Below, one piece after another: positions 1 to 37,433 of a stretch of DNA of 55,141 nt (position 1 is its first letter; each line of letters begins with the position of its first letter). Source of the DNA: Hyphomicrobiaceae bacterium UBA2767. GTDB lineage: Bacteria > Pseudomonadota > Alphaproteobacteria > Rhizobiales > Methyloligellaceae. The stretch is from positions 11,545 to 66,685 of the forward strand of contig DEIT01000193.1 in the NCBI GenBank assembly GCA_002352635.1, read 5' to 3'. The notes under the pieces were generated by a model. That model was not told where the DNA came from. It saw only the letters and a program-made list of their open reading frames with translations, and ran no database searches. The position numbers and the translations under genes were made by a program.

Positions 1-1307
1 GCGGCGGGTCCCATCATATCGAACTGCGCGGTGGGGTAGGCAACGATGGCGTCAGGCTCCATCGTCTTGCCGGCCAGGGCCAGGTAGGCGAGACCGATCG
101 CCTTGCGAACGACAATTGTAACAATTGGCACCGTCGTTGCGATCATGGTGTTGAGAAACCGGGAGGCCAGGGAAACCATGCGCTGATTCTCTATATCCGG
201 TCCGACGATGAACCCTGGACAATCCGTCAGGAAAACGAGGGGGATGTGATATGCGTCGCACAGCTCCACAAACTTGCGCATCTTCCGGATTCCCTTGTCA
301 TCAAGCGCTCCGGCCAAATGCTTCGGCTGGTTGGCGATAATACCGACGGACTCGCCATCGACCCGCGCCCATGTGGTGATGACGTTGCGGCCATAAAATT
401 CCTTGTAATGAAAGACCTCTCCGCCGTCGACGAACAATTTGATCAATTGATTCATATCGTAAGCGCGGCGCATATTTTCCGTAACGATTTCTGTAATTTT
501 TTTGCGCCCTTCCGGGGTTTCTATCGGTGCCGGTTTTGGTTCGGCCCTGAGTGGCAGTTCCCAGCAGTTGTGGGGGAAATAGGACAGGAACTCCCGGATG
601 GACCGCAGGCAGTCTTCGTCATCTTCCGCCATGTAATCGACCTGGCCGGTAACTTTGGTTGCTTTCTCGGCGCCGCCAATCTCATCCGCTGAGACATCGT
701 GGCCGATTCCAACCTTGACGACCGGCGGGCCCGACATTCCCATAAAACCCGTATTTTTTACGATGGTGACGAAGTCGGACTGCATCGCGGTAAATGACGG
801 GCCGCCAAAGCATGGCCCCATAAAACCCGCTATCACCGGAGCGCGGCCCGAAAGCCGGTAGTGTTCGCGAAATCTGTGTCCAATGCCGGCGGCCATAGCC
901 CCATTGGCTTCCTGGAAGCGTCCGGCGCCGGCCTCCATAAGCGCGATATAGGGGGCGCTGTGCTCATGTGCCAAATGGCGGATGCGTGCGGTCTTCGCCT
1001 CGGCGACCCGGCCACGTGTGCCTGCAAGAACAGTCGCATCTTCGGATGTAACATAGACAAGGCGGCCGTCTATCTTGCCCCAGCCCGCGACGAGGCCATC
1101 GGCAGGTGTGCGGCCGCGCAGGTCGGCATGCTGACTGCGCCCAAGTACGCCGATTTCAACAAATGTGGAAGGATCAAGAAGAAGTTCAATGCGCTCACGA
1201 GCCGTGAGCTTGTTCTTCGCATGGAGCTGATTGATTTTTTCCTCCCCCCCCATCGCCTGACCTTTGCGGCGATAACGCTCCAGTTTCTTTATCGTTTGTT
1301 CTTCCAT
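1..1307 (-). CDS. Acyl-CoA carboxylase carboxyltransferase subunit (PccB / transcarboxylase 12S-like); C-terminus cut by the window edge
   Basis: Absent from the ORF track because it runs off the window. My minus-strand translation from ATG 1307 reads MEEQTIKKLERYRRKGQAMGGEEKINQLHAKNKLTARERIELLLDPSTFVEIGVLG...LVAGWGKIDGRLVYVTSEDATVLAGTRG. This is the typical N-terminus of single-chain biotin-dependent carboxyltransferases. The + strand ORFs 246-692 and 861-1364 are its antisense shadows. Confidence 0.85.
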   Translation of the reverse strand, partial: MEEQTIKKLERYRRKGQAMGGEEKINQLHAKNKLTARERIELLLDPSTFVEIGVLGRSQHADLRGRTPADGLVAGWGKIDGRLVYVTSEDATVLAGTRGRVAEAKTARIRHLAHEHSAPYIALMEAGAGRFQEANGAMAAGIGHRFREHYRLSGRAPVIAGFMGPCFGGPSFTAMQSDFVTIVKNTGFMGMSGPPVVKVGIGHDVSADEIGGAEKATKVTGQVDYMAEDDEDCLRSIREFLSYFPHNCWELPLRAEPKPAPIETPEGRKKITEIVTENMRRAYDMNQLIKLFVDGGEVFHYKEFYGRNVITTWARVDGESVGIIANQPKHLAGALDDKGIRKMRKFVELCDAYHIPLVFLTDCPGFIVGPDIENQRMVSLASRFLNTMIATTVPIVTIVVRKAIGLAYLALAGKTMEPDAIVAYPTAQFDMMGPA

Positions 1308-1529: not shown

Positions 1530-1757
1530 ATGGAGAACGTTGATACGGTATCATCCGTGACTGGAGTAGTTTGGAAGATCGAAAAAAAGATCGGAGATTC
1601 CGTCGACGAAGGCGAGCAGATCATGATCTTGGAATCTATGAAAATGGAAATCCCTGTGGAGGCTCCAGCCGGAGGAAAGATTATCAGCATCAATGTCAAC
1701 GAAGGCGATGGAGTTGAAGAGAATCAGATTATCGCCGTGATCGAGGCGGCGGGCTGA
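1530..1757 (+). CDS. Stand-alone biotin carboxyl carrier protein (biotinyl domain only, 75 aa)
   Basis: AGGAGG at 1515-1520 lies 9 nt before the ATG. The biotinylation motif is E-S-M-K-M-E (Lys38, nt 1641-1643). The flanking segment VEAPAGGKIISINVNEGDGVEENQ is typical of biotinyl/lipoyl hammerhead domains. Confidence 0.85.
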   Translation: MENVDTVSSVTGVVWKIEKKIGDSVDEGEQIMILESMKMEIPVEAPAGGKIISINVNEGDGVEENQIIAVIEAAG

Positions 1758-1807: not shown

Positions 1808-2323
1808 TCAGGAACTCAGGTCGGGAGTCACTTCTTTCAGACCGGCGTAATTGCCATCGTGATAAACAAGCGGCAGCCCCCTGTCAGATAACCGCAACTC
1901 CACGATTCGACCCAGAAATATGGTGTGTGTTCCTACGTCGATCCGAGAATCCACTTCGGCGTCAAAGTTCACGAGGGCGTTACGGATGGCGGGGGCGCCA
2001 GTTGCAAGCGTATCCCAGTCGCAGAGTTTGAAACGCGCGTCCCTGTCCAGGGTCATGAAGTTTGTCGCAGTTTCAAACTGCTGCTCGTCAAGAACGCTTA
2101 CGCAAAACCGACTGCCCTCGGCTATCGTTTTGTGCATCTGCGCAGCCCGGTTGATGCAAATCAGCAATGTCGGTGGATCGGCGCATACAGAACATACAGC
2201 CGTAGCCAGCATTCCTCTTGGTTTGCCATCGACCATCGCCGAGATGACGTTCACCGCCGCCGCAAGATGACGCATTCCATTTTTGAAATCTTCTGAGGTG
2301 ATACCTGACATTTCCTTATCCAC
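1808..2323 (-). CDS. NAD(P)H-flavin reductase #1 (HpaC/NtaB-type flavin_reduct domain)
   Basis: 171 aa. FKNGMRHLAAAVNVISA...GMLATAVCSVCADPPTLLICI...THTIFLGRIVEL...PLVYHDGNY resembles small reductase components of two-component monooxygenases. The track start is GTG and overlaps the upstream stop by 8 nt. ATG at 2311 is an alternative start. Confidence 0.8.
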   Translation of the reverse strand: MDKEMSGITSEDFKNGMRHLAAAVNVISAMVDGKPRGMLATAVCSVCADPPTLLICINRAAQMHKTIAEGSRFCVSVLDEQQFETATNFMTLDRDARFKLCDWDTLATGAPAIRNALVNFDAEVDSRIDVGTHTIFLGRIVELRLSDRGLPLVYHDGNYAGLKEVTPDLSS

Positions 2324-3524
2324 TTGCCGCTTGAGTTTTAGGTGTTTTATTGGTCTTTGTCAGCGCATCCGATAAGACGCCCTCGTCCAGCAGGCGGCGA
2401 ACGAGTTCTGAATCGCATCCCCAGTCGCTAAGCGCCGAGGTCGTATCGGCGCCTGATTCACGAGGCGGCCCCTGAACGGCACCAGGAGTGCGGGAAAACC
2501 GCGGCGCCGGTGCAGGTTGCCGAACTCCGCAAACATCGACAAACATTTCGCGGGCGCGATTGTGAGTATCCTCAATTGCCTCGCTCATGGACAAGACCGG
2601 CGCAAGACACGCTTCGCCATCACCGGCGAGATGGATCCATTCGTCGCGTGTTTTCTGCCGGATTGAGTCAGCGATTGCGTGGCTAATTGCCGGCCATTTT
2701 GTGCGGTCGTTCTGCTTATCAATGAACGATTGCGGAAGTTTCAAAAGGCGCACCAGCTCAGAAAAAAACTTGGGTTCAATTGCACCGATAGCGACATATT
2801 CATTGTCAGCAGTTTCATAGCACCCATAAAATGGCGCGCCACCATCGATAACATTTGCGCCCCGTTCCTCTGACCATTGACCCGTTGCGAGCATTTCGAA
2901 AATCATCGTCATCATATTGGCAGTGGCGTCGACCATTGCGGTGTCAACTATTTGTCCTTTCCCGGACTTCGACGCTTCGAACGCCGCCGCGACGAGACCA
3001 AATGCCAAGAACAGGGCGCCGCCAAAATCTCCCACGAGATTGAGTGGCGGCACTGGCGGCCCGTCGGCTTGCCCGATTCCCGCAAGGACGCCGGTCGTGG
3101 CGATATAGTTGATGTCATGTCCGGGAAGGGTGGCGCGCGGACCGCTCTGGCCCCACCCGGTCATGCGGCCATAAACAATATGGGGACTTTTCGTTAAAAC
3201 GTCGCCTGGCCCCAGACCAAGACGCTCCATTACGCCGGGGCGCATGCCCTCGATCAATATATCGGCCTCGGCAGTGAGATTCAAAATCAATTCGCTTGCG
3301 CCTGGCTTTTTAAGATCAATTGCAACAGAAGGCCGGCCCCTGTGCATAAAACTGGAGCGGCTGCTTGCAGGGCTCGATGATGTTTCAATGCGGTCGAAAC
3401 GCAGGACTTCGGCTCCAAGATCCGAGAGCAACATGCTGCAATAAGGGCCAGGACCGATGCTTGCGATTTCGAGCACTCGAATGCCCGACAGTGGTCCTGC
3501 AGCATTGCTTTTTGGTGACGACAT
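2316..3524 (-). CDS. Family III CoA-transferase / alpha-methylacyl-CoA racemase-like protein (CaiB/BaiF fold) #1
   Basis: 402 aa. GIRVLEIASIGPGPYCSMLLSDLGAEVLRFDR and the Asp loop LNLVGDFGGALF are typical of CaiB/BaiF/AMACR proteins. A GAGGA SD precedes ATG 3524. Confidence 0.8.
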   Translation of the reverse strand: MSSPKSNAAGPLSGIRVLEIASIGPGPYCSMLLSDLGAEVLRFDRIETSSSPASSRSSFMHRGRPSVAIDLKKPGASELILNLTAEADILIEGMRPGVMERLGLGPGDVLTKSPHIVYGRMTGWGQSGPRATLPGHDINYIATTGVLAGIGQADGPPVPPLNLVGDFGGALFLAFGLVAAAFEASKSGKGQIVDTAMVDATANMMTMIFEMLATGQWSEERGANVIDGGAPFYGCYETADNEYVAIGAIEPKFFSELVRLLKLPQSFIDKQNDRTKWPAISHAIADSIRQKTRDEWIHLAGDGEACLAPVLSMSEAIEDTHNRAREMFVDVCGVRQPAPAPRFSRTPGAVQGPPRESGADTTSALSDWGCDSELVRRLLDEGVLSDALTKTNKTPKTQAASG

Positions 3525-3705
3525 GCTTTCCTCGATTTGTGCAGTACTCAGGAAATTGTGTGGACTTTGAAGCTATTAACATTGCCCTCCGCAATGTATC
3601 ATATTTCATGTTGACAATGAAAGCACATTTAAGCGTTATTTATGGGTACAATTTACCCGTCAGGATTAGGTAATCTTTTCAACGCAGCCCAATCAGGGAA
3701 ATAGC

Positions 3706-4860
3706 ATGAATTTTGAAATGACACCGAGGCAATTGGAACTTATTGAGACCGCACGTGAAGCATACGCGAGAAAACTAGAGCCCCTCGCGGGCGATAGGAG
3801 TGTTGAAGGCACTTGGAAGCTCCGTAAGGCAATGGCAGAGCAGGGCTTTTTAGGCCTCAACATGCCGACAGATCTGGGTGGTGTGGGTTTGCCACTGCTG
3901 GATACGCTTATGGTCATACAAACTCTTCACGCCTGTTCGTCGGCCGTCGGCAGCCTGGCGCATCGGACATCCACAGGTGCTTGCGGTGCGATTGAGGCTT
4001 ATGGCACGCCGGAACAGCGCGAGAAATACATTCGTGGAATTTGTTCTGGCGAGTTAGGAATTTCGATCGGTATTACGGAGCCGGAGGCAGGCTCGGCAGC
4101 GACAGCAATGCGGACCAGAGCCGAGATAGACGGTGATGAAGTCGTAATCAATGGCAGCAAACAGTTCGTCAGCAGCATTAACACCAATGATTATACGGTG
4201 GTTTACTGCCGTTTCGGAACCACGGGTCGGTCTTCGGACATCGGAGCGGTTATCGTTCCCCATGATGCGCCGGGTTTCAGTCGCTCGAACGGTACCATTA
4301 ACATGGCCGACGAGCTGCTGTTCGAGCTCTATTTTGATGAGTGCCGTGTGCCCAAATCCAACATCCTGCTCGACGGCAGCGCGTTTGGAAAACTAATCAG
4401 CGTTTATAACGCTGAGCGACTGGGGAGCATCTCGCGTTTACTCGGCGCTGCGCAGGCCGCATACGAATATGCGCTTGCCTATTCCAAGGAACGGCATCAG
4501 TTCAATCGCCCAATTAGCGATTTCCAGGGCATTCAATGGATGCTTGCGGAAATGCGGATCAAACTCGATGCGGCACAGTTGCTCGTATACCGGGCAGCCG
4601 CTACGGCCGGGGCGACGGGTCTGCCGGAACCGCTTGAGACCTCGATTGCCAAGGTTTTCACTGCCAAAGCCGCAAAAGAGATCTGTGACGATGCGATCCA
4701 GATTCTAGGCGCAAACGGCTACACGAAGGAATATCCGCTGGTGCACCGCTACGCCGAGGTGCGTGGCGGGTCAATCTATGGCGGTACGCTTCAGATACAC
4801 AAGAACATGATCGCGGCAAAGATTCTCGATCGCCCAATAAGCCAATGGAAGAAGGATTAG
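3706..4860 (+). CDS. Acyl-CoA dehydrogenase with IVD/LCAD-type catalytic base
   Basis: 384 aa. ITEPEAGSAATAM matches the ACAD fold. Glu sits at the helix-G position (VYNAERLGS) and Gly at the MCAD-Glu376 position (SIYGGTLQIHKN), as in isovaleryl-CoA dehydrogenase. Confidence 0.85.
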   Translation: MNFEMTPRQLELIETAREAYARKLEPLAGDRSVEGTWKLRKAMAEQGFLGLNMPTDLGGVGLPLLDTLMVIQTLHACSSAVGSLAHRTSTGACGAIEAYGTPEQREKYIRGICSGELGISIGITEPEAGSAATAMRTRAEIDGDEVVINGSKQFVSSINTNDYTVVYCRFGTTGRSSDIGAVIVPHDAPGFSRSNGTINMADELLFELYFDECRVPKSNILLDGSAFGKLISVYNAERLGSISRLLGAAQAAYEYALAYSKERHQFNRPISDFQGIQWMLAEMRIKLDAAQLLVYRAAATAGATGLPEPLETSIAKVFTAKAAKEICDDAIQILGANGYTKEYPLVHRYAEVRGGSIYGGTLQIHKNMIAAKILDRPISQWKKD

Positions 4861-4872
4861 GGGAGGCATTTC

Positions 4873-5334
4873 GTGTCGGAAATTGATCGCTCGCTGATTG
4901 GCTCGCAGTCCGAGCTGTTTGTAGTTGAGGTTGAAAAAGGCGCTATTCGCAAGTTAGCCGAGGCCATCGGTGACCCGAATCCCGTTTACAGGGATGCGGA
5001 TGAAGCGATGGCTCAAGGGTATGCTGGCATTATCGCGCCGCCGACCTTTCCCGTGACATTCTTTCCGCCTGAAGAGCCCGAATGGACGCGTGATCTCGAT
5101 CGGCGCAGGATTCTGGCCGGCGAGCAGCGGTTTCTGTACTCGCGCCCGATCATAGCAGGGGACGTATTGACGTGCCGCGTGATCTTCCTCGGTGTCGATG
5201 ACAAGCAAGGGAAGTCAGGCAAAATGGAGCTGTTGTACCAGGAGATCGTCGGAGAGGGCGCGGATGGCAATCACGTCTTTTCCAATACGAAGACGACTGT
5301 TTACAAGGAAGCGGTAGGTTTGCTTAAGAAGTGA
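4873..5334 (+). CDS. MaoC_dehydrat_N-type hotdog protein (HadA/ChsH-like partner half of an (R)-specific enoyl-CoA hydratase)
   Basis: 153 aa with a GTG start 6 nt after GGGGAGG. GAIRKLAEAIGDPNPVYRDADEAMAQGYAGIIAPPTFPV is the usual N-terminal-type MaoC signature. Confidence 0.7.
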   Translation: MSEIDRSLIGSQSELFVVEVEKGAIRKLAEAIGDPNPVYRDADEAMAQGYAGIIAPPTFPVTFFPPEEPEWTRDLDRRRILAGEQRFLYSRPIIAGDVLTCRVIFLGVDDKQGKSGKMELLYQEIVGEGADGNHVFSNTKTTVYKEAVGLLKK

Positions 5335-5382
5335 ATACCGCTTAGTTCCACATAGCTCCTCACCAAACCGGATTAACATGTC

Positions 5383-7002
5383 ATGAAAACCATAAACGCT
5401 ACAAAACTAGATGAGATGCTGGGATCGTCGGAAGGCGCCTGGCCGGTCCGAAAATGGGCGTTTTTCGATGTCCGCGAAGTTGGCGAGAGCCAAAAGGGCC
5501 ATATCTCAACCGCGACATTCTTACCCCGGCGCATGATCGAGTACCGGCTATCCGAGCTCGTGTCGGCGCCGGCTACGCCTATAATCCTCTATGATGATGG
5601 CGAAGGGGATATACGGGCCAGCTGTGCCGCAAAAACAATGGCCGACCTGGGCTACACGGATGTTACGTGCCTGGTAGGCGGCTATGCGGGATGGAAACAG
5701 GCGGGATTTGAAGAGGTTACCGGCTGGAATGTTCCGAGCAAGGATTTCGGCGAACAAGTCCTGGTTACCAGCAATGTACCTTACCTGAACTCAAACGAGC
5801 TTGCGGGGCGGCTTGAAGCGGGTGAAAATATCGGCATTTTTGACGTCCGCACACCGGGCGAATTTCGAGAAGCATCGTTGCCGGCCAGCGTATGCGCTCC
5901 TTCATTCGAATGGGCGCTGCACGCCAAAGACCTCAACGATAATTTTGACACCATTGTCATTCACTGCGCCGGCCGAACGAGATCGATCATCGGCGCGGCA
6001 ACGGCCAGCCTCCTTGGATTGAAGAACCTGTGGTCCCTTGAAAACGGGACGATGGGTTGGATCCTCTCCGACCATGAACTTGCATCGAACCAGACGCGCG
6101 TACTTGGCGCGCCGAGTGAAGAGAGCCTTTCCGATTCGGCTGAGCGGGCTCAAGAACTCGCGGAGTCGCTGGGTGTAAAATATATGAGCCCGAAGGAGTT
6201 GAAGACACGTCTCGATGATCGCTCGAGGAATTCGCTTTATATTTTTGACGCGCGCGATGGCGACGGCTACCAACAGGAGCATATCTCCAGCAGTATCTGG
6301 TTGCCTGGGGGGCAGGCCTGTCAACGCACAGACGATTTTGCGGCTGTGCCGGGATCTCCGATTGTTTTCGTCGACGATGACGATGCACGGGCCCTCGTTA
6401 CCGCATATTGGTTCCTCCGTATGGGTTTCCCGGATGTCTCTATTTTGAAGGGGGGCATTAAAGCCTGGCAGGACGAGGGATATATCGTAAAAACGGGGCG
6501 TGACCGGCCGGAGCCGCTTGGGCTCGAGGACGCAAAGGCCCGCAGCGTGGCGTTAGATTGTGCGGACTTGCAAAAGGCCGTGGGCTCAGACAATCCACCC
6601 ATTGTGATCGACGTTGGAGCCAGCAAACGAGTTGCCGCCTGTCACATACAGGACGCCAAGTGGATTCCACGCGGTTATCTCGAAGCGCAAATAGGCAATT
6701 TCGCTGACAAGTCAAAACCCGTTGCGGTCACCGCATGGGAACCTCAGCAGGCGGCGTTCGCCGCTGCTGCGTTGGCAGATGCTGGATACCAGCACGTGAC
6801 GTGGCTTACCGCTCCAGGCAAGGAATGGAAAGAGGCGCTGCCAACCACAACAGGCTTGCCCGAAGATGCAACTGAGGTTGCTGATACTCTGGCCATTCCC
6901 TACCGCGAGAGCAAGGAGCGGATGCTCGAATATCTCGAATGGGAAGAGGAACTTGGAAAAAAACACATGAGCTCAGCGGCCAAGCAGGAAACGGTGAAAT
7001 AA
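5383..7002 (+). CDS. Four-domain rhodanese protein #1 (one catalytic Cys)
   Basis: 539 aa with four rhodanese-like repeats. The active-site loops read LYDDGEGD (Asp), IHCAGRTRS (Cys195, nt 5965-5967), FVDDDDAR (Asp) and VTAWEPQQ (Ala). The C-terminal motif is YLEWEEELGKK. It aligns along its whole length with ORF 32466-34094. Confidence 0.85.
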   Translation: MKTINATKLDEMLGSSEGAWPVRKWAFFDVREVGESQKGHISTATFLPRRMIEYRLSELVSAPATPIILYDDGEGDIRASCAAKTMADLGYTDVTCLVGGYAGWKQAGFEEVTGWNVPSKDFGEQVLVTSNVPYLNSNELAGRLEAGENIGIFDVRTPGEFREASLPASVCAPSFEWALHAKDLNDNFDTIVIHCAGRTRSIIGAATASLLGLKNLWSLENGTMGWILSDHELASNQTRVLGAPSEESLSDSAERAQELAESLGVKYMSPKELKTRLDDRSRNSLYIFDARDGDGYQQEHISSSIWLPGGQACQRTDDFAAVPGSPIVFVDDDDARALVTAYWFLRMGFPDVSILKGGIKAWQDEGYIVKTGRDRPEPLGLEDAKARSVALDCADLQKAVGSDNPPIVIDVGASKRVAACHIQDAKWIPRGYLEAQIGNFADKSKPVAVTAWEPQQAAFAAAALADAGYQHVTWLTAPGKEWKEALPTTTGLPEDATEVADTLAIPYRESKERMLEYLEWEEELGKKHMSSAAKQETVK

Positions 7003-7850
7003 TGAGCGTTCGGTCGTGTGTTGGCCCTGCCGATATCGAGTGGCTCGAGAACGAGGCAATTCTCCACCGCACGCCTTGCGGGACTGGAAATCTCACATGG
7101 CGTCAGTGGGGCAAAGGACCACCGCTCATATTGTTGCATGGCGGGTTCGGCTCCTGGAAGCACTGGGTGCGCAACGTCGGGGAGCTCTCGAAGAGCTTCA
7201 CCGTATACGCTGCTGATCTGCCGGGACTTGGCGACTCCGATCCTGGACCCGAGCCTATCACAGCGCGGACGCTGGCAGCTATTTTCAGCGAAGGCATTGA
7301 TCGTTTGGTTGGCAAGGACGAGCGGATGTACGTCGGTGCATTCTCGCTTGGTGCGGCCATTTCCGCACCTCTGATTTGTATGTTAGGCGATCGTGTCCGT
7401 CATGCGATCCTCATCGGTCCAGGTGGACTTGGTTCGCTATGGCATAATTCTATTGAGAAACTGCGCCGCCGCTCCTCGACCATGACGGAGGAGGAACAGC
7501 GGGAAGTCATTCACTACAATCTGGCTTTTTCAATGATTGCCAACCGTGAACTGATCGACGAAGACACGATATCGCTTCAATTCGAGTTGTTGGCTCAGAA
7601 GCGACGATTGATCGGATTGCCAATCTCGAAATCGTCCATTGTCTTCGACTGCCTGCCGGAAATAGGTAATCGAACGACATTTGTATGGGGCGAACACGAT
7701 CCATACCCCACTCCAGATTTGAAGGCAGTCATTAAAAAATTCCATGGCGATGTTCCTGGAGTGGACATTCGTATCATAGACGGCGTTGGTCATTGGGCGA
7801 ATTTTGAAGCGGATGAAATCGTTTCGGACATGTTTCGTGACATGCTTTGA
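7002..7850 (+). CDS. Alpha/beta-fold hydrolase #1
   Basis: ATG 7002 shares one base with the rhodanese TAA (TAATG). Motifs present are LILLHGGFGSWKHW, the nucleophile elbow GAFSLG and the C-terminal GVGHW histidine. The track start at 6939 would overlap the rhodanese by 64 nt, so I reject it. Confidence 0.8.
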   Translation: MSVRSCVGPADIEWLENEAILHRTPCGTGNLTWRQWGKGPPLILLHGGFGSWKHWVRNVGELSKSFTVYAADLPGLGDSDPGPEPITARTLAAIFSEGIDRLVGKDERMYVGAFSLGAAISAPLICMLGDRVRHAILIGPGGLGSLWHNSIEKLRRRSSTMTEEEQREVIHYNLAFSMIANRELIDEDTISLQFELLAQKRRLIGLPISKSSIVFDCLPEIGNRTTFVWGEHDPYPTPDLKAVIKKFHGDVPGVDIRIIDGVGHWANFEADEIVSDMFRDML

Positions 7851-8025: not shown

Positions 8026-9486
8026 ATGATCGGACTGAGCGGATTTGGCGGATATATTCCGCGATTGAGATTATCGAGAAAGAGCATTGCCGAGGTCAAT
8101 GGATGGATTCAGCCCGGCATCAAGCGGTTGGGCAAGGGCGAGCGCAGCATCTGCAATTGGGATGAGGACAGTGTGACAATGGCAGTTGAGGCTGCACGCG
8201 ATTGTCTCGACAACCAGAACGGTAAGCAGTTGCGCGCCATCTATCTTGGATCCACGACTTTACCGTTCCAGGACCGCCAGAATTCGGGCGTCGTTGCCGC
8301 AGCACTCAATCTCGATGAGGCCTTGTCCACCATTGACATCACCGCCGCACAAACGGCAGGCACTTCAGCGCTGGTTGCGGCACTTGATGCAGCGGACGGC
8401 GCCAAAGGGGGGGATATTCTCGTGCTGGCAAGTGACGCGCGGCGAACTCGTTCAGCCGCCCAGCAGGAAATGACCTTCGGCGATGGCGCAGCGGCGTTTA
8501 CTGTCGGTAGCAAAGATGTCGTCGCCGAGCTTCTCGGGTATCATTCGGTATCCATTGATTTCGTTGACCATTATCGTGGTGACAATCGCGAATATGATTA
8601 TAACTGGGAAGAACGCTGGATACGCGATGAAGGGCTTCTCAAGATTATTCCGAACGCGATCTCCGAAGCATTCGGCAAGGCAGGCATCGCGGCAGAAGAT
8701 GTCGACGTTTTGATCGCGCCATCCACGTTACGGGGTGTTTCGGCAAAGATCGCCAAAATGGTTGGTGTTTCAGAGGAAAGCTTGGCCGAGTCGCTCGATG
8801 GCGTTGTCGGTGAGACTGGCTGCGCGCACCCGCTGGTCATGCTGTCGCACAGTCTGGAAAGTGCATTACCAGGACAGGTGATCGTTGTCGCATCGTTTGG
8901 ACAGGGCTGCGATGTATTGGTCTTCAAGACCACTGATGCAATCGCCTCATTCAAGCCGTCCTTAGGAATATCAGGTTACATTTCGCGACGTTGCGAGGAA
9001 ACCAACTACAACAAGTTCATGGCCTTCAACGACCTCGTCCTTCAGGAGAAAGGCATGCGCGCCGAACTGGACAATCAAACGGCGCTAACCCAACTCTATC
9101 GCCGCCGCGACATGCTGCTTGGTCTTGTCGGCGGGGAGTGTGATGTATGTGGAACGCACCAGTTCCCGCGCTCGCGTATCTGCGTAAACCCGAACTGCAA
9201 TGCGATGAATACGCAAAAGCCTTTCCAGTTTGCCGATATTCCTTCGAAAATCATGACATGGTCGGCGGACCACCTGACGTACTGCCCCGATCCGCCATTG
9301 CATTATGGCATAATTCAATTCGAGGGCGGGGGCCGCTTTCTCGCCAATTTCACCGACGTTGATGTCGGGAATGTCGAGGTCGGCCAAGATATGAGAATGA
9401 TGTTTCGCATTAAGGATTATGACGATCTGCGCGGCTTTCGCCGTTACTTCTGGAAAGCTGCCCCATCCAATCAAACGAGGAATTGA
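8026..9486 (+). CDS. HMG-CoA-synthase-like (thiolase-superfamily) domain fused to a DUF35 OB-fold/zinc-ribbon domain
   Basis: 486 aa. The N-terminal ~340 aa align by eye to HMGCS/MvaS (NWDEDSVTMA Glu motif; QEMTFGDGAAAFTV). The nucleophile position reads A-A108-Q (nt 8347-8349) instead of A-C-Y. The C-terminal part has the Zn ribbon CDVCGTHQFPRSRICVNPNC (about nt 9130-9200) and an OB-like tail, as in DUF35. Confidence 0.75.
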   Translation: MIGLSGFGGYIPRLRLSRKSIAEVNGWIQPGIKRLGKGERSICNWDEDSVTMAVEAARDCLDNQNGKQLRAIYLGSTTLPFQDRQNSGVVAAALNLDEALSTIDITAAQTAGTSALVAALDAADGAKGGDILVLASDARRTRSAAQQEMTFGDGAAAFTVGSKDVVAELLGYHSVSIDFVDHYRGDNREYDYNWEERWIRDEGLLKIIPNAISEAFGKAGIAAEDVDVLIAPSTLRGVSAKIAKMVGVSEESLAESLDGVVGETGCAHPLVMLSHSLESALPGQVIVVASFGQGCDVLVFKTTDAIASFKPSLGISGYISRRCEETNYNKFMAFNDLVLQEKGMRAELDNQTALTQLYRRRDMLLGLVGGECDVCGTHQFPRSRICVNPNCNAMNTQKPFQFADIPSKIMTWSADHLTYCPDPPLHYGIIQFEGGGRFLANFTDVDVGNVEVGQDMRMMFRIKDYDDLRGFRRYFWKAAPSNQTRN

Positions 9487-9489
9487 ACT

Positions 9490-10692
9490 ATGGCAAGTGG
9501 AATCAGGGACAAAGTTGCAATAGTCGGCATGGGGTGCTCCAAATTCGGCGAACGCTGGGATTGCGATACCGAAGACCTCATTGTCGAGGCGTTTGAGGAA
9601 TGCATCCTGGACGCCGGGATCGATATCAAGGAGATTCAGGCCGCCTGGCTTGCTACCGCTATCGAGGAAGTCCATTCCGGGAAAGGCGGCATTCCTCTCG
9701 CTTTTGCTCTGCGTCTCCCCTACATCCCTGTGACTCGTGTCGAAAACTTCTGCGCCAGCGGCTCTGAGGCGTTGCGTGGCGCCGTCTATGCGGTCGCTTC
9801 AGGAGCATGTGATATTGCACTTGCCCTGGGGGTTGAGAAACTCAAAGACACGGGCTATGGCGGCTTGCCGCAGCGCAGCCGCGGGGTCCTGAATTCCATG
9901 TGGTGGGCCAACTATTCCGCCCCGGGATCCTTTGCCCAACTTGCCTCCGCTTATCAAGCCAAGCACGGAATCAATGCTGACGAACTCAAACGAGCGATGG
10001 CTCATATTTCGGTCAAGAGCCACGCCAATGGCTCCAAGAATCCGAAGGCGCATCTCCGGAACAAAATCACCGAAGATCAAGTGCTCTCCGCGCCAATCAT
10101 CGCAGAGCCGCTCGGTCTTTTCGATTGTTGTGGCGTGAGCGATGGCGCCGCCTGCGCGATTGTCACCACGCCCGAAATTGCGAGGAACCTTGGAAAGAAG
10201 GATCTCATTACGGTCAAGGCGCTGCAACTCTCGGTCTCGAATGGAACCGAGTCGGGGCACAATTCCTGGGACGGCAGTCATTTCATGACGGCCCGGATTG
10301 CCAGCACTCGGGCTTACGAGGAAGCAGGAATACGCGACCCCCGGAAGGAGATAGATCTTGCCGAAGTGCACGACTGCTTTTCGATCACGGAACTCGTGAC
10401 AATGGAAGATTTACACTTGTCGCCCGAGGGAGGTGCGGTCAAGGATGTGCTGGACGGTTTCTACGATTCAGATGGCGGTCTGCCTTGCCAAATCGACGGC
10501 GGGCTTAAGTGTTTCGGCCACCCGATCGGTTCGTCCGGTCTGAGGATGATCTACGAGCTTTATCTGCAGATGCAAGGTCGAGCCTCCGAACGCCAGGTCG
10601 AAAATCCCAAATTGGGGCTTACCCACAATTTGGGCGGCGCGCCACATCAGAATGTGTGTTCGGTAGCCATCATTGGGCAGTTGGGGGCATAG
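9490..10692 (+). CDS. SCP-x / nonspecific lipid-transfer-type thiolase
   Basis: 400 aa. It starts 3 nt after the upstream stop. The nucleophile motif is VENFCASGSEAL and the C-terminal motif is KCFGHPIGSSGLRM. The N-terminus VAIVGMGCSKFGE is typical of DUF35-associated thiolases. Confidence 0.85.
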   Translation: MASGIRDKVAIVGMGCSKFGERWDCDTEDLIVEAFEECILDAGIDIKEIQAAWLATAIEEVHSGKGGIPLAFALRLPYIPVTRVENFCASGSEALRGAVYAVASGACDIALALGVEKLKDTGYGGLPQRSRGVLNSMWWANYSAPGSFAQLASAYQAKHGINADELKRAMAHISVKSHANGSKNPKAHLRNKITEDQVLSAPIIAEPLGLFDCCGVSDGAACAIVTTPEIARNLGKKDLITVKALQLSVSNGTESGHNSWDGSHFMTARIASTRAYEEAGIRDPRKEIDLAEVHDCFSITELVTMEDLHLSPEGGAVKDVLDGFYDSDGGLPCQIDGGLKCFGHPIGSSGLRMIYELYLQMQGRASERQVENPKLGLTHNLGGAPHQNVCSVAIIGQLGA

Positions 10693-10765: not shown

Positions 10766-11680
10766 ATGAGCAAATTATTGGAAGGCAAAGTCGCTATTGT
10801 TACCGGTGCAGGGCGCGGTATCGGGCGAGGAATTGCAGAGTCAATGGCTGCCCACGGCGTCAAGGTGGTTGTCAATGATCTTGGTGCGACTGCCGATGGC
10901 GAAGGCGAGGATACCGGACCCGCCAATGAAACCGTCGAAGCGATCAAGAAGGCCGGCGGCATAGCCATTGTCAACGGCGATAGTGTTGCGAGCTGGGATG
11001 GCGCACACGCCATGGTCGAAACCGCGCTTTCGACGTGGGGCCGTATCGATTGTGTAATCAACAACGCCGGTATCCTTCGCGACGTAATCTTCCACAAGCT
11101 TGAGGAAGCGGATTTTGACGCTGTCGTCGCCGTCCACCTCAAAGGCAGCTTTAACGTATCGCGCGCCGCGGCTCCGCATTTCCGCAAACAGGAAAGCGGC
11201 GCATACGTGCACATGACGTCAAATTCGGGGCTGATCGGCAATTTCGGACAAGCCAATTATGCCGCTGCCAAGATGGCTATTGTTGGCCTCTCAAAGTCGA
11301 TTGCACTCGATATGTCGCGTTTCAACGTAAGGTCCAACTGTATCTCGCCGACGGCATGGAGCCGCCTTACAGGCACTATCCCGGCCTCAACCGATGCCGA
11401 GAAAGAACGCGTCAGCAAGATCATGGCCATGACGCCGGACAAGATTGCGCCGCTCGCAACTTATCTCTGCAGTGACGCGGCAAAAGACGTCACCGGACAG
11501 ATATTTGCGGTCCGTAACAACGAGATTTTCCTGATGTCGCAAAATCGTCCGCTCCGCTCGGTTCACGATTCCGATGGCTGGACGCCGGAAAAAATCGCCA
11601 ACCATGCCATGCCTGTGCTGAAGGCAACGTTCTATGACCTCGAGCGGTCTGGCGATGTCTTTTGCTGGGATCCGATTTGA
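10766..11680 (+). CDS. SDR, MFE-2-type (R)-3-hydroxyacyl-CoA dehydrogenase-like
   Basis: 304 aa. VAIVTGAGRGIGRGIA...VVVNDLG...GRIDCVINNAGILRD...GNFGQANYAAAKMAIVGL closely parallels the dehydrogenase domain of peroxisomal multifunctional enzyme 2. Confidence 0.8.
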   Translation: MSKLLEGKVAIVTGAGRGIGRGIAESMAAHGVKVVVNDLGATADGEGEDTGPANETVEAIKKAGGIAIVNGDSVASWDGAHAMVETALSTWGRIDCVINNAGILRDVIFHKLEEADFDAVVAVHLKGSFNVSRAAAPHFRKQESGAYVHMTSNSGLIGNFGQANYAAAKMAIVGLSKSIALDMSRFNVRSNCISPTAWSRLTGTIPASTDAEKERVSKIMAMTPDKIAPLATYLCSDAAKDVTGQIFAVRNNEIFLMSQNRPLRSVHDSDGWTPEKIANHAMPVLKATFYDLERSGDVFCWDPI

Positions 11681-11718: not shown

Positions 11719-13227
11719 CTATACGACAGTAAGCTGCGGGCTTGGCCGTTGGTTGACGATCTTTTTCAGAATTCGCATCCCTTCCACCAGCCCGAGCTTG
11801 TTAGAGTCCGGGTTCAGTGTGAATCTCACTGCCCGCGGCGGCTCTATTTGTCCGATGGAGAAGCTTTCTGATTTGACGACCGAGACACCGGCCTTCTGTG
11901 CGGAGTTTAAGAATTCACTGGATGACCAGTGATCGGGCAGACAGAGCCATGAGAAAAACGCCGACGGATGGCTGCGCAACTTGATGCCCTTGAGCTCTTC
12001 CGCTGCAATCTTGTGACGCCGTGCAAGCTCCTCATTGTTGCGTTGCGCTATTTTTTCAGCGGTACCGTACATAATCATCAGCGAGGCCGCGTCGTGTATC
12101 AGCGGTGATGTCGCCAAGGTAAGCGAGTGAATCGTGTTGGTGAATTCATCGACAAACCCAGGCGGAACCGCCATGAAGCCAACACGGAGTGCCGGGCTTA
12201 CGCATTTGGAGAGACTGGTGAAGTATATGGTGCGTTCTGGAGCGTAAACCGCCAGCGGGGGAGGGCGGTCGACTGTGCCGGCGGCAACCACATCGTCTTC
12301 GACAAAAATGAGATCGTGAGTGCGTCCGATTTCGGCAATTTTCTTTCGCCGTGTCTCGGACATGACGCAACCAAGGGGATTTTGCGCTGTCGGTTGAAGA
12401 AAGACGATTCGCCCGCCAGTCCTCTTGTGGGCGGCTAGCAGTGCATCGGGCATCATGCCCTCCGCATCCATTTCGACTCCCTCCAGATCAATCTCGCGTA
12501 GCGCGGCAATCGACTTTAACCCCGAATAAGTCAACTGCTCGGTGAGAAAAGGTCCACCGAAGTGAGCCAGGCCCATTGTGGCGGTCAGGATCGCTTGCTG
12601 TCCGCCGCCGCACGCGATTATCTGCTCCGGCGGAACTTCGAAGCCGAGGCGCCTAATCCAGGCGGAGCCCGCCGCGCGATGCGCGATGTAACCCGCGGCG
12701 GGCGGATAAGAGACGAGCGGTAACAACATAGTGTGGTCCGCCACCTCCGAAAGAACATTCCGCGTCACGTCGATCAAGTCGTCGATTGGGAAGCGGAAGC
12801 ACGCAAGATCGATGGTGCCGGGTTTAGATTCCGGCAGGAAGCGGGTGTATTTATCCATATCTTCATGGTTCTTGACGAATGTTCCGCGCCCGACCTCTCC
12901 AGATACCAAATCGCGCATCTTGACGACCATATAAGCGCGACCCACAGTGCCAACAGTGATCCCCAACTTCAACGCCAGATCACGCTGCGGTGGCAATTGA
13001 GCGCCCGCCGGAAGAACGCCACTGTTAATTGCGTTCGCAATCGCACCAGCGAGCGCAAGATATCGCGGTCCACCGATCCCGGAAATGTCCGGTACCCAAA
13101 ATTCTTTATCGGGTTCCAATGGATTATCCTCTGTTTTGTGCAGCATTTCAGGAATAACAATATATGATAATAATACCCATTCAATTTGGGACATTGCACT
13201 AAAATTGAAGCGTCTGTATAGTGCCAT
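11719..13227 (-). CDS. MocR/PdxR-type regulator (GntR wHTH fused to a class-I aminotransferase-like domain)
   Basis: 502 aa. The wHTH is LPPQRDLALKLGITVGTVGRAYMVV...GEVGRGTFV, followed by about 350 aa of aminotransferase-fold sequence. The start is uncertain, since in-frame Met codons lie further in. Confidence 0.75.
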   Translation of the reverse strand: MALYRRFNFSAMSQIEWVLLSYIVIPEMLHKTEDNPLEPDKEFWVPDISGIGGPRYLALAGAIANAINSGVLPAGAQLPPQRDLALKLGITVGTVGRAYMVVKMRDLVSGEVGRGTFVKNHEDMDKYTRFLPESKPGTIDLACFRFPIDDLIDVTRNVLSEVADHTMLLPLVSYPPAAGYIAHRAAGSAWIRRLGFEVPPEQIIACGGGQQAILTATMGLAHFGGPFLTEQLTYSGLKSIAALREIDLEGVEMDAEGMMPDALLAAHKRTGGRIVFLQPTAQNPLGCVMSETRRKKIAEIGRTHDLIFVEDDVVAAGTVDRPPPLAVYAPERTIYFTSLSKCVSPALRVGFMAVPPGFVDEFTNTIHSLTLATSPLIHDAASLMIMYGTAEKIAQRNNEELARRHKIAAEELKGIKLRSHPSAFFSWLCLPDHWSSSEFLNSAQKAGVSVVKSESFSIGQIEPPRAVRFTLNPDSNKLGLVEGMRILKKIVNQRPSPQLTVV

Positions 13228-15107: not shown

Positions 15108-15129
15108 TTAACAGTGAAGGAATAGAAGT

Positions 15130-31619: not shown

Positions 31620-32465
31620 CTATAGTCTGTTGTAAGGACTGCTCCCGCATCGCTTGAGAATTTCAATGGGGGTTTCGAGGACGATCGCTTTGTAGAGGTC
31701 CTCGCTCAAACCCAACTCGCCAAGTTCGCTGAATTGCGCCGCAAGGTCGAAGAAAGGTGCTGTCGAGCCCCAGACTATCTTTTTTTTCAGCGGGCCCTGC
31801 GCGTATTTAAGCAGCACTTCCCAGCCTGACCCTTGAACCCCGTAGTATTTTGTGCGCTGGCCGGAGAGTTCAATGAACACGTTAGCGTGGCGCATTGCGA
31901 TTGACGTCATGTCGCCCACCCAGGGCCACCCTCCGTGACTCGCTACAATCACCAGCTGGGGAAAATCGATGGCCACTTGATCAAGATGGCAAGGGTGTCC
32001 AAGATTCATTGGACAATTGGAACTGAGCTGCGTGGAGGCATGGATAATGACGCCAAGGCCAAGCTCGCAACATTTCCCATATACCGGATAGTACTGACGG
32101 TCGCTCGCGGGCAGGCCCTCGCGGTATGGCGTCAGGCCGATCAAGCGCAAACCCATGTCGCACGCCTGATGCACTGTCTCAACCGCGTCCATGCAGGGCG
32201 ATGGTGAAATGTCTGCTATGCCAATGAAACGATCCGACTCACTGACAAGCGCTGCCAACTCCTCAAGCGGAGCGCCCGCACCCGTGACAACCTGCTGAGA
32301 TATCCCAAGCTCATCCAGGAGTTCGATATGTCCTTGGACAGAGGAACTCTTTCCATCGGACGTGAACGAGCGGAAATGCTTCGCGTAGGCACCGCGCTCT
32401 GCCAGCTTTTCCCGCGTGGCTTCGAGTGGCGCGAAGGCTCTGAAATCAATGCTCGTATGGTTCAT
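31620..32465 (-). CDS. Amidohydrolase-2 family (ACMSD-like metal-dependent hydrolase/decarboxylase TIM barrel)
   Basis: 281 aa. GVIIHAS...LGHPCHLDQVAIDFPQLVIVASHGGWPW...IVWGSTAPF fits the PF04909-type pattern. Its ATG directly abuts the rhodanese stop. Confidence 0.7.
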   Translation of the reverse strand: MNHTSIDFRAFAPLEATREKLAERGAYAKHFRSFTSDGKSSSVQGHIELLDELGISQQVVTGAGAPLEELAALVSESDRFIGIADISPSPCMDAVETVHQACDMGLRLIGLTPYREGLPASDRQYYPVYGKCCELGLGVIIHASTQLSSNCPMNLGHPCHLDQVAIDFPQLVIVASHGGWPWVGDMTSIAMRHANVFIELSGQRTKYYGVQGSGWEVLLKYAQGPLKKKIVWGSTAPFFDLAAQFSELGELGLSEDLYKAIVLETPIEILKRCGSSPYNRL

Positions 32466-34094
32466 TTAATCGTGACCATCTTTCTTGACGAGCTTTTCCT
32501 CCCAATCCAGATACTGCTGCATACCTTCTTGCCCCCTGGCGAAGGGTGGCAACACGAGGTCATCCGCTTCGGTCGGTCGAACGACACCTGTCTCGACAGA
32601 CAGTCCAGATTTTCTCCATGCTGTTAGTCCACCCTCCAGGAGGAAAGTGTTCGAGTATCCCAGTCCGACCAGGGTCGCATTCGCGAGGCAGGATTGACTC
32701 CCGCTGCGGCAGGTCACGAGGATAGCCGTAGTTTTACTGGCCGCTACGTTGCCGATGCGCTGCTCCAATGATCCGCGCGGCAGCCAGGTAGAGCCGGCGA
32801 TATGTCCAGATGAGAAGTTCTTGCTGTGGTCGACGTTGATGACGGTCATCTCTGGAGTTTCCGCCAATTGTTGTTGTGCCTTCTCCGGGGTCAAATGACG
32901 GCTGGTAGCCTTGGCCTCGTCCAGCCCCAGTGGGGCGGGGCGGCCGCGGCCTTTGTCAAGGCAGTTACCCGCTTCAACCCAGCCGTTCACACCTCCGCTC
33001 AGGATATGAACGTTCGGATACCCCATCCGGAGGAAATAGGAAGCCGTAACTATGGCGCGGCCTTCCCGGTCATCGATAAATACGATTGGCGCCATTTTGA
33101 CGGCGACGAAATCATCGGCCCGCTGTACCGCCTGACCGCCCGGTAAAGCCATGGTTCCGGGAATGTGGCCGGCCTGATAGTCCGCGAGAGGTCGTATGTC
33201 GAACACATAGGCATTGCTGTCGCCTCGTTTTCGCGCTTCGATTGCATCCATCAGAGCTTGCCTATCCATTGACGGAATGTTGGCATTTGCCGCGATTTTG
33301 GCGGCACGGTCCTCAAATACTTTGATGCTTTCACCTGACGGGTTGAAAGGTTCCGCCGAACCGAATTCGTCCAACTTATGTCCAGCCAGGATCCAGCCCA
33401 TTGTCCCGTTTTTCAGGGCGTAGACATTTTCGAGCCCAAGTTCACGAAGCGCTTGGCAGGCGATGATTGAGCGCGTCCGCCCGGCGCAATGGACAATAAT
33501 TGGCACATCGGCTTTCTCGAAGTCGCCGAGCGAGCGAGCTACATCGAAGCTGGGGGCCGGTCGTGAGTCTGGAATATGAGCGGCCTCATGTTCTTCCGGT
33601 GTCCGGATGTCACAGATCAGCATCGCTTTGCCCGAGTCACGCCAGGAGGCCAACTCTTCCGCTGTCAAATCCGGCACATTTTTTGAAGCGTGGAGGTTCT
33701 CGCCAAATAGTTTGCATGGCACGTTGGAGCCTTCGACCAGCGTATGCCCGGCCTCGCGCCATGCTGCGGCGCCACCGGACAGTACAAGCACATTCTTGTA
33801 TCCGAAGCCTCTTAGTGTCTGCAGGGCTAATCCCGCACGGTCGTCATCAGTGCCATTGTCGTACAGAACGATCAGGGTGCTTGGGTCCGGCACCAGTTCC
33901 GCGATGCGAAATTCGACAAGTCGCCGCGGCAGAAAAGTGGTCCCGCTTACATGTCCCTTTTCGGCCTCGCCAGCCTCGCGCACGTCAAACAAGGCATATT
34001 CGCTGTTCGACGACCTCAGCTTTTCCAGCTCAGGCACGGAAATAGCGTCGTTTGTGCTCGCAGGCCCTGCTTTCGAATCTGGTTGCCCCGTCAT
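32466..34094 (-). CDS. Four-domain rhodanese protein #2 (two catalytic Cys)
   Basis: 542 aa. The active-site loops read LYDNGTDD (Asp), VHCAGRTRS (Cys), FIDDREGR (Asp) and VTCRSGSQS (Cys). The C-terminal motif is YLDWEEKLVKK. The ATG shares a base with the upstream ligase TAA. Confidence 0.85.
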   Translation of the reverse strand: MTGQPDSKAGPASTNDAISVPELEKLRSSNSEYALFDVREAGEAEKGHVSGTTFLPRRLVEFRIAELVPDPSTLIVLYDNGTDDDRAGLALQTLRGFGYKNVLVLSGGAAAWREAGHTLVEGSNVPCKLFGENLHASKNVPDLTAEELASWRDSGKAMLICDIRTPEEHEAAHIPDSRPAPSFDVARSLGDFEKADVPIIVHCAGRTRSIIACQALRELGLENVYALKNGTMGWILAGHKLDEFGSAEPFNPSGESIKVFEDRAAKIAANANIPSMDRQALMDAIEARKRGDSNAYVFDIRPLADYQAGHIPGTMALPGGQAVQRADDFVAVKMAPIVFIDDREGRAIVTASYFLRMGYPNVHILSGGVNGWVEAGNCLDKGRGRPAPLGLDEAKATSRHLTPEKAQQQLAETPEMTVINVDHSKNFSSGHIAGSTWLPRGSLEQRIGNVAASKTTAILVTCRSGSQSCLANATLVGLGYSNTFLLEGGLTAWRKSGLSVETGVVRPTEADDLVLPPFARGQEGMQQYLDWEEKLVKKDGHD

Positions 34095-37366: not shown

Positions 37367-37433
37367 ACAAATATCCAAATTTTATCAATTCGATGCCTTT
37401 TTGGCATGCGTTGCGATCGTCACGGGTGAGAAG

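Follow-up and report, generated by a model that had tools for sequence, protein, structure and literature searches.

The closest described relative of the proteins reported here is PDB entry 1YT8, which we take to be PA2603 of Pseudomonas aeruginosa. It is a structural-genomics entry annotated as a 'thiosulfate sulfurtransferase', its orthologue in Pseudomonas protegens is named 'tst', and its function is as little established as that of the proteins described below. The PA2603 gene lies downstream of the gene for 3-mercaptopropionate dioxygenase (3mdo) and has been described as apparently co-transcribed with it (PMC12947264). We examined a stretch of 55,141 nucleotides from Hyphomicrobiaceae bacterium UBA2767 (contig DEIT01000193.1), referred to below as the window, which encodes two rhodaneses of the same four-domain kind, Rhd#1 (539 aa; 5383..7002, plus strand) and Rhd#2 (542 aa; 32466..34094, minus strand). 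Both proteins are full members of the PA2603/1YT8 family; unlike PA2603, however, they are encoded in acyl-CoA operons without a dioxygenase, and their lineages are fixed members of two CoA-dependent catabolic modules. The protein kind was already known, and it is the place in acyl-CoA operons, the mosaic of cysteines across the family and the gene fusions that are new, as judged against the searchable literature. There, PA2603 appears only as a neighbour of 3mdo, and we found no mention of 1YT8 as a structure or of 'four rhodanese domains', nothing on a rhodanese in operons of the ligase/ACAD-fold/flavin-reductase or the ACAD/hotdog/hydrolase type (ACAD, acyl-CoA dehydrogenase), and nothing on a one-, two- or three-Cys mosaic or on dioxygenase and lyase fusions of the 1YT8 family.

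Several other systems offer points of comparison. S. aureus CstB and B. phytofirmans PRF combine a non-haem-iron dioxygenase with a rhodanese, and in these fusions the iron-dependent persulfide dioxygenase and the rhodanese persulfide together yield thiosulfate (PMC12934615). The 1YT8 family is analogous in its adjacency and fusion to dioxygenases, but its partner has the cupin fold, whereas that of CstB and PRF is a metallo-beta-lactamase; the window proteins differ further in having no dioxygenase partner, ACAD-fold flavoproteins and flavin reductases being found in that place. In the CoA-disulfide/persulfide reductases CoADR-RHD, CoAPR and Npsr the rhodanese Cys acts on CoA-bound sulfane sulfur, which provides a precedent for a rhodanese in CoA chemistry. 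There, however, the rhodanese part is a lone C-terminal domain joined to a pyridine-nucleotide disulfide reductase, and no such reductase is found in the window operons. MOCS3/MoeZ and ThiI associate an adenylate-forming enzyme with a rhodanese, comparable to the overlap of a PaaK-like ligase gene with that of Rhd#2, but there a protein C-terminus or tRNA is adenylated in an E1-like or PP-loop reaction, whereas the window has a PaaK-type ligase in a catabolic context. An earlier note on this DNA had stated that a rhodanese in a beta-oxidation-type operon is not explained by textbook pathways. The pairing is indeed unusual, but it has precedents in the thiol-dioxygenase-linked 1YT8 family and in the CoA-persulfide rhodaneses.

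Rhd#1 matched 1YT8 over residues 23-524 in a phmmer search (E 1.3e-64), and its AlphaFold2 model (pLDDT 93.7, pTM 0.90) was aligned to 1YT8 by Foldseek with TM 0.85/0.87 and an rmsd of 3.1 Å, two-domain rhodaneses following far behind (E 1e-6 to 1e-7). Like Rhd#1, PA2603/1YT8 has 539 aa, four domains, the domain-2 loop NCAGRTRSIIG, the linker NVPSKxFGE and a C-terminal YLxWE helix, although it is only 31-35% identical to the window proteins. Chains of the family are 511-550 aa long; both window proteins contain four PF00581 stretches and carry the signature motifs CAGRTRSI (domain 2), NVP[SC]KxFGE (linker), NGTMGW, LPGGQxxQR and C-terminal YxxWExxL. Among 8000 candidates scored, 6170 proteins reached E <= 1e-20; at E <= 1e-30 the family comprised 514 clusters at 50% identity. 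More than 600 matches were obtained among species-representative genomes, and the range includes Dehalococcoidia/SAR202, Rokubacteria, Binatia, Alpha-, Beta- and Gammaproteobacteria, Klebsiella, Erwinia and, as an example of a plant pathogen, Ralstonia. Each half of the proteins repeats the plan of bovine rhodanese, A. vinelandii RhdA and E. coli SseA, in which an Asp-bearing inactive domain is followed by a Cys domain with a six-residue loop. In comparison with these classical two-domain sulfurtransferases, the two-domain unit is doubled in one chain and extended by a C-terminal helix, the CAGRTR loop is family-specific, and the second unit often lacks Cys.

The two window proteins are 43% identical to each other (BLASTP, 219/508 identities, E 8e-135). 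The domains of Rhd#1 span approximately aa 1-114, 125-240, 262-372 and 385-492, with the C-terminal helix at aa 511-538, and the motif YL[ED]WEExLxKK reads YLEWEEELGKK in Rhd#1 and YLDWEEKLVKK in Rhd#2. To locate the catalytic-Cys column, all eight domains were aligned one by one with GlpE. In this alignment the column is occupied by D71, C195, D331 and A451 in Rhd#1 and by D, C203, D and C462 in Rhd#2. Domain 2 of both proteins and domain 4 of Rhd#2 align to GlpE Cys65, with the six-residue loops CAGRTR and CRSGSQ, respectively. The residues were confirmed by reading the codons: Cys195 of Rhd#1 (loop HCAGRTRSI) is encoded by TGC at 5965..5967 and Ala451 (loop VTAWEPQQA) by GCA at 6733..6735, both on the plus strand, whereas the codons for Cys203 and Cys462 of Rhd#2 lie at 33486-33488 and 32709-32711 on the minus strand. 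Of the two, only Rhd#2 thus has Cys at the catalytic position of more than one domain, and in this respect it resembles PA2603/1YT8, domain 4 of which also carries Cys (LTCGSSLLA), in contrast to Rhd#1. The domain-4 loops of Rhd#1 and Rhd#2, VAVTAWEPQQAAF and ILVTCRSGSQSCL, align without a gap, so the difference between them is real and no artefact of alignment. The earlier note had read these features from the letters, namely a common domain pattern and C-terminal motif, Asp in domains 1 and 3, H-C-A-G-R-T-R-S in domain 2 of both paralogs, and a domain 4 with Cys only in the second; Pfam, the motif reading, the GlpE column and the ungapped loop bear it out on every point. The loop also differs from that of a phosphatase or arsenate reductase of the Cdc25/Acr2 type: in C-A-G-R-T-R-S the Arg is at +5 and the Ser at +6, which is the loop length of GlpE. 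By a rule said to go back to Bordo & Bork in 2002, a six-residue loop marks sulfurtransferases and a seven-residue C-X5-R loop marks Cdc25/Acr2.

The domain-2 Cys was present in 188 of 188 family members and in 138 of 138 diverse representatives, in which the loop follows C[AGS]GRTR[SGA] and is mostly CAGRTRS. This conservation in all diverse members argues for catalysis at the domain-2 Cys. The other positions vary: among the 188 members, domain 4 has Cys in 101, Ala in 48, Ser in 29 and Asp in 9, and domain 3 has Asp in 128, Cys in 35 and Ser in 23. Counted over the 138 less redundant representatives, one catalytic-position Cys is found in 87 (63%), two in 35 (25%) and three in 16 (12%), and wherever there is only one it is in domain 2. 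Judged from this pattern, domain 2 is the likely universal and obligatory catalytic centre of the family, domains 3 and 4 being optional. The single-Cys state of Rhd#1 is therefore no special loss but the norm of the family.

In the neighbour-joining tree, the Ala forms make up a coherent clade of about 48 sequences that includes Rhd#1; its loop motif is T-A-x-D/E-P-x-Q-A, with Ala or Ser at the domain-4 position, and the GG motif that follows the loop is eroded. Ser in domain 4 marks a second clade, and Rhd#2 is placed among the Cys forms with the motif T-C-R-x-G-x-Q-S. The phylogeny proposed in the earlier note as a check thus separates the two proteins, and of its suggestion that the copies are specialised one part stands: one-Cys and two-Cys forms are conserved lineages, but the number of Cys does not follow gene context. 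A relay with two persulfide sites, which it gave as an example for one of the copies, is a conjectural role. The domain-4 residue showed no correlation with context; CDO-type dioxygenase neighbours occur with Cys, Ser, Ala and Asp forms, and ligase-coupled forms have Cys or Gly in domain 4. We also asked whether selection on domain 4 had been relaxed in the Ala clade, but no special decay signal was seen: whichever group is taken, this domain is the least conserved of the four, and its mean pairwise identity is about 40-42% among Ala, Ser and Cys forms. Since it is equally poorly conserved in all groups, the domain of the Ala clade appears remodelled rather than decayed. Many Dehalococcoidia loci have Cys in domain 3 (loop FCCDGRARA) and encode three-Cys proteins (L012, L016, L017, L019, L026, L031, L037, L040, L041 and others), and a few family members combine Cys in domain 3 with Asp in domain 4.

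Operon 1, on the plus strand, begins with an ACAD gene (3706..4860; all four ACAD Pfam domains) followed by the gene for a HadA/MaoC_N-type hotdog protein of 153 aa (4873..5334; PF13452 FAS1_DH_region, the former MaoC_N, E 9e-27; HadA-like in NCBIfam), Rhd#1 and an alpha/beta hydrolase (7002..7850; PF00561 and PF12697). The spacings are 12 nt, 48 nt and -1 nt. At the Rhd#1/hydrolase junction, gaaaTAATGagc, the stop codon TAA (7000-7002) and the start codon ATG (7002-7004) are shared as TAATG (7000-7004), so the position of Rhd#1 between a MaoC_N-type hotdog gene and an overlapping hydrolase gene is as it had first been read. From this ATG the hydrolase has 282 aa, and its homologues are 282-292 aa long. 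Further downstream are the genes for an HMG-CoA-synthase/KAS-III-like protein (HMGCS) fused to DUF35, with zinc ribbon and OB parts (8026..9486; Pfam, NCBIfam), a SCP-x-type thiolase (9490..10692; NCBIfam NF004810, 702 bits, above the cut-off) and, as the final gene, a short-chain dehydrogenase (SDR; 10766..11680; PF00106). In a scan of 3400-8200, promoter-like consensus sites were no commoner than in shuffles. Terminator-like sites in the same region numbered 11, against a shuffle mean of 4.8 (sd 2.2), and none of them lay in an intergenic gap or separated the ACAD, hotdog, Rhd and hydrolase genes from one another.

We compared this operon with five loci, a 4.26-Mb metagenomic chromosome (L001), Sneathiella sp. 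(L002), a JGI contig (L085), a member of Rhodobacteraceae (L087) and Oceanibacterium hippocampi (L086). The order is preserved in the first four and partly in L086, with 40-58% identity of the rhodaneses. The common order runs from carboxyltransferase (minus strand), biotin carboxyl carrier protein (BCCP) and flavin reductase (minus strand) to ACAD, hotdog, Rhd, hydrolase (not always), HMGCS/DUF35, thiolase, SDR (not always), a GntR-aminotransferase regulator (minus strand) and AMP-dependent acyl-CoA ligases; the Rhd-hydrolase pair is retained in L001, L002, L085 and L086. Identity with the L001 orthologue is 82% for the ACAD, 74% for the hotdog protein, 74% for HMGCS/DUF35, 90% for the thiolase and 80% for the SDR.

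Operon 2 is on the minus strand and begins with an ACAD-fold protein (36121..37287; Pfam), the PDB matches of which include DszC. Both catalytic-base glutamates are missing from it, and it is presumed to be a flavin-dependent oxygenase. Its open reading frame reaches 37407 (428 aa), but homologues begin at 37287, and the protein probably starts there (MDFRLSPQQ..., 388 aa), as in the syntenic locus L004 and in L088; the 40 codons upstream of 37287 overlap the region of a divergent LysR regulator gene (37401..38360, plus strand; Pfam), which has the same place in L004. A flavin reductase (35577..36089; PF01613, E 6e-40) and a PaaK-like acyl-CoA ligase (34094..35479; PF14535; PDB matches to PaaK and 2-hydroxyisobutyryl-CoA synthetase, E 1e-55) follow. 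The ligase stop codon overlaps the Rhd#2 start codon (TAATG), and directly after the Rhd#2 stop codon comes the ATG of an Amidohydrolase_2 family gene (TAAATG; 31620..32465; PF04909), again in the same place in L004.

The rhodanese of L004 is 62% identical to Rhd#2. A core of four genes, for the ACAD-like protein, the flavin reductase, the PaaK-like ligase and Rhd, was also found in L088 and L089, and the ligase/Rhd codon overlap is repeated in L004, L088 and L089. Rearranged orders occur in L090 (AMP ligase, Rhd, ACAD-like, flavin reductase), in L092 (ACAD, PaaK, ACAD, TAXI transporter, Rhd) and in L047, another version of the same module; on the Variovorax SRS16 plasmid the order is ACAD, AMP ligase, Rhd, ACAD. 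Both operon orders are thus shared with unrelated contigs whose rhodaneses are 39-62% identical, stop and start codons again overlapping, and the embedding of both copies in CoA-thioester operons, as noted earlier, is upheld. Because the orders are conserved and the codons overlap, co-transcription of the rhodaneses with their neighbours is strongly suggested by the gene arrangement.

For the family as a whole we surveyed 71 genomic loci, counting a CDO gene as a neighbour if it was within four genes. The commonest neighbour was a cupin thiol dioxygenase of the CDO_I type (23 of the 71 loci), which in 14 was directly upstream on the same strand; sulfite-oxidase-like molybdoenzymes were present at 9 loci and ACADs at 10, and MFS transporters, DHDPS-type and Amidohydrolase_2 proteins were other neighbours. 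Six cluster representatives are fusions of a CDO-like cupin to the four rhodanese domains, five of them with the cupin at the N-terminus and one at the C-terminus, and one further representative is a fusion of the four domains to a Cys/Met-metabolism PLP lyase (fusion representatives P0167, P0194, P0224, P0262, P0263, P0249 and P0218). Every CDO fusion has a single Cys and carries Ser in domain 4. Through these fusions to dioxygenases and to a lyase, which are of the Rosetta-stone type, the family is functionally tied to thiol, persulfide and sulfite chemistry. In Ralstonia solanacearum, a CDO gene (minus strand) is next to overlapping Rhd and MetC genes, an order that agrees with clusters reported from Advenella and Variovorax, in which mercaptosuccinate dioxygenase is accompanied by a cystathionine beta-lyase and a rhodanese (PMC5373536).

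On the basis of these observations, we tentatively propose, at somewhat less than even confidence, that Rhd#1 and Rhd#2 are sulfurtransferases that carry a persulfide on domain 2 and handle sulfane sulfur or sulfite in the CoA-dependent catabolism of sulfur-bearing acids. Each protein may be regarded as two tandem copies of an inactive-then-catalytic rhodanese unit, with one obligatory catalytic centre predicted at the domain-2 Cys (Cys195 in Rhd#1, Cys203 in Rhd#2) in an arginine-rich six-residue loop CAGRTR(S) of the sulfurtransferase type. Domain 4 would be a facultative second site, predicted to be catalytic in Rhd#2 (Cys462) and remodelled in Rhd#1 into a Cys-less, presumably still conserved pocket. 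As for the donor and the acceptor, we infer that the domain-2 Cys would take sulfane sulfur from a low-molecular-weight persulfide, thiosulfonate or thiosulfate to form Cys-S-SH, and would pass it to sulfite (giving thiosulfate), to a sulfinate or to a thiol. Each rhodanese would be an accessory subunit made alongside the CoA ligase, the ACAD-fold flavoenzyme and the hydrolase, disposing of sulfane sulfur or sulfite from acyl-CoA intermediates presumed to bear sulfur, or removing sulfur from CoA or thiol intermediates. It would then fill the same place as the family members beside cupin thiol dioxygenases, with an ACAD-fold oxygenase and a flavin reductase possibly standing in for the dioxygenase.

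A number of results weigh against this proposal. No measured enzyme activity was found for any member of the PA2603/1YT8 family, and in the only genetic test, deletion of tst in P. protegens had no significant effect on 3-MPA levels (PMC12947264). Within operon 1, conservation relative to L001 is lowest for Rhd (56%) and the hydrolase (52%), the other proteins being 74-90% identical. With 12 queries from related loci, tblastn gave no CDO or sulfite oxidase match in the 55-kb window. A Pfam scan of 34 window proteins gave no sulfur-metabolism family besides the rhodaneses, the remaining open reading frames being classed by eye, and none of the contexts examined (8 from the Rhd#1 clade, 7 from the Cys forms closest to Rhd#2) holds a CDO gene. 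What else cluster 1 encodes (biotin carboxylase, carboxyltransferase, BCCP, enoyl-CoA hydratase, HMGCS/DUF35 and thiolase) looks like a Liu/Atu-style route for branched, sulfur-free acyl-CoAs; the presence of HMGCS/DUF35 and thiolase together with carboxylase genes, an IVD-type ACAD and an enoyl-CoA hydratase suggests such a route for beta-branched acyl-CoAs.

The ACAD of operon 1 has to be counted on the same side. Its best PDB match, 5AF7 (E 2e-63), is AcdDPN7, a 3-sulfinopropionyl-CoA desulfinase, which is also its best NCBIfam match, and both proteins have Gly at the MCAD-type base position (YGGT in the operon-1 ACAD). However, we rejected a desulfinase function: the NCBIfam score of 284 bits is far under the cut-off of 600, and Arg84 and Gln246 of AcdDPN7 are replaced by Ser and Glu. 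We take these two residues, with Gln246 in place of the catalytic Glu, to be the key residues of AcdDPN7; their numbering was verified on the 5AF7 sequence. The Arg84/Gln246 signature was present in none of the 12 other rhodanese-adjacent ACADs examined. With Glu at the IVD-type base position (YNAERLG), the operon-1 ACAD looks like an ordinary dehydrogenase.

Were the substrates sulfur-free, the rhodanese could serve the CoA pool, stripping CoA persulfide or other persulfides that inhibit the flavoenzymes and the ligase of the operon and regenerating CoA-SH. We regard this as rather unlikely. Every context of both lineages is dominated by CoA ligases, ACADs and CoA-transferases, the searches just described revealed no other sulfur gene in the window, and CoA persulfide binds short-chain ACADs tightly. 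In addition, CoA persulfide is a recognised toxic species, and rhodanese domains that act on it are known from the CoA persulfide reductases (PMC12934615). However, it would be left unexplained why only two of the many CoA-dependent operons in the window carry a rhodanese, a third module at 27072-29555 being without one, and such housekeeping gives no account of the family fusions to thiol dioxygenases and a C-S lyase. A different use of the rhodanese would be sulfur insertion, by which the ligase activates a carboxylate and the rhodanese persulfide attacks the acyl-adenylate or thioester, as in ThiI and MOCS3, to give a thiocarboxylate or another C-S product, the second Cys of Rhd#2 resolving an acyl-disulfide. 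The coupling of ligase and rhodanese genes speaks for it: the ligase stop overlaps the Rhd start in the window, L004, L088 and L089 (PaaK-like ligases) and in L090 (a classical AMP-binding ligase), and the ligase-coupled forms of these loci all have two Cys; the AMP ligase of Variovorax SRS16 directly precedes Rhd, and in L005 and L006 Rhd is followed by two AMP ligases. Yet the Variovorax rhodanese lacks the domain-4 Cys, the surroundings are catabolic (transporters, thiolases, hydratases, LysR or GntR regulators), the vicinity holds no gene for a sulfur-carrier protein or a cysteine desulfurase and no known thioacid gene, and the PaaK-like protein matches true CoA ligases (E 1e-55), which makes this route improbable.

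A broader form of this idea, that the coupled acyl-CoA ligase and four-domain rhodanese, together with the ACAD-fold flavin oxygenase and flavin reductase, are an undescribed system doing sulfur chemistry on an activated small-molecule carboxylate, seems to us a long shot, if a slightly better one. In one version the product would be a thiocarboxylate or acyl-persulfide, formed when a persulfide attacks the acyl-adenylate or acyl-CoA, and the resolving cysteine would be the second one of Rhd#2; in the other, a mercapto- or sulfino-acyl-CoA would lose its sulfur, and the part played elsewhere by the cupin thiol dioxygenase would fall to the ACAD-fold oxygenase. That the rhodaneses do not transfer sulfur at all, but act as structural or regulatory subunits of an operon enzyme complex or have a phosphatase- or arsenate-reductase-like activity of the rhodanese/Cdc25 superfamily, would agree with the low conservation of Rhd among the operon proteins, with the tst mutant without a phenotype and with three of four Rhd#1 domains lacking Cys. 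It is nevertheless very unlikely in view of the invariant Cys, absolutely conserved in the 138 diverse members, and of its six-residue C-A-G-R-T-R loop, which has the sulfurtransferase length and not that of the seven-residue C-X5-R. The least credible reading, with a next to negligible probability, is that a rhodanese gene was inserted in a catabolic operon by chance: although a paralogous ACAD-like/MaoC/hydrolase module exists without one, for each lineage the rhodanese gene keeps its position in five or more independent contigs, with 39-62% identity, and it is translationally coupled on both sides.

Several other genes of the window touch on the two operons. Left of operon 1 are an acyl-CoA carboxyltransferase gene truncated at its 5' end by the window edge (3..1307, minus strand; tblastn identity 77% to L001 and 66% to L085) and a gene for a small BCCP (matched part 1530..1694, reading frame on to about 1740, plus strand; 58% identity to the L001 BCCP) with the biotinylation motif ESMKME and an AGGAGG ribosome-binding site. 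Neither was in the program-made list of open reading frames, as one runs off the window end and the other is short. A flavin reductase gene divergent from operon 1 (1808..2323, minus strand; PF01613, E 1e-37) has the same place in L001, L002, L085 and L087; the neighbouring family III (CaiB/BaiF) CoA-transferase gene (2316..3524, minus strand; PF02515, E 4e-82) is absent from the equivalent position in L001 and L002. On the right, the GntR/aminotransferase (MocR-type) regulator (11719..13227, minus strand; Pfam; synteny in L001, L002, L086 and L087) probably starts near 13101, where the homologue alignment stops. The HMGCS/DUF35 and SCP-x-type thiolase genes (8026-10692, plus strand) form a trio that resembles the archaeal thiolase/HMGCS/DUF35 complex or PhlABC. 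Three tandem paralogous AMP-dependent acyl-CoA ligases follow at 13449-18391 (plus strand), with a fourth at 25265-27079, and the tandem is kept in L001 and L002.

The third module (27072-29555, plus strand) encodes an ACAD-fold oxygenase-like protein, a MaoC dehydratase and an alpha/beta hydrolase and resembles operon 1 without the rhodanese; its hydrolase is 31% identical to that at 7002-7850, and its HadB-like MaoC protein could form a heteromeric hydratase with the HadA-like hotdog protein of operon 1. Between a nitronate-monooxygenase-like gene and an enoyl-CoA hydratase gene, a 498-aa multi-pass membrane protein without a Pfam match (19405-20901, plus strand) could be an uncharacterised transporter of the cluster. 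A RibBA-type gene (23126-24310) and a second, stand-alone GTP cyclohydrolase II gene (30932-31573; both plus strand) hint at a dedicated flavin supply for the many flavoenzymes, and RibBA is also found near the rhodanese cluster of L085. A DinB/MDMPI_N-family protein, with the fold of thiol-dependent isomerases and transferases (49443-50246, plus strand), is encoded beside an enoyl-CoA hydratase and a carboxylase pair of the MCC/GCC type (51141-54980, minus strand). Rfam and tRNA scans of the window gave no match.

The 1YT8 family is widespread and has had a crystal structure since 2005, yet no assigned function was found for it. Its operon placement and its fusions lead to testable hypotheses, namely sulfane-sulfur or sulfite disposal, CoA-persulfide repair and sulfur insertion, and the map of cysteines indicates which residue to mutate, that of domain 2 being predicted as obligatory and those of domains 3 and 4 as optional. 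Members of the family may, in addition, serve as markers of clusters with which marine and soil bacteria degrade organosulfur carboxylic acids. More generally, rhodaneses fixed in acyl-CoA operons suggest that sulfur handling and CoA-dependent catabolism are connected in a way not described before.

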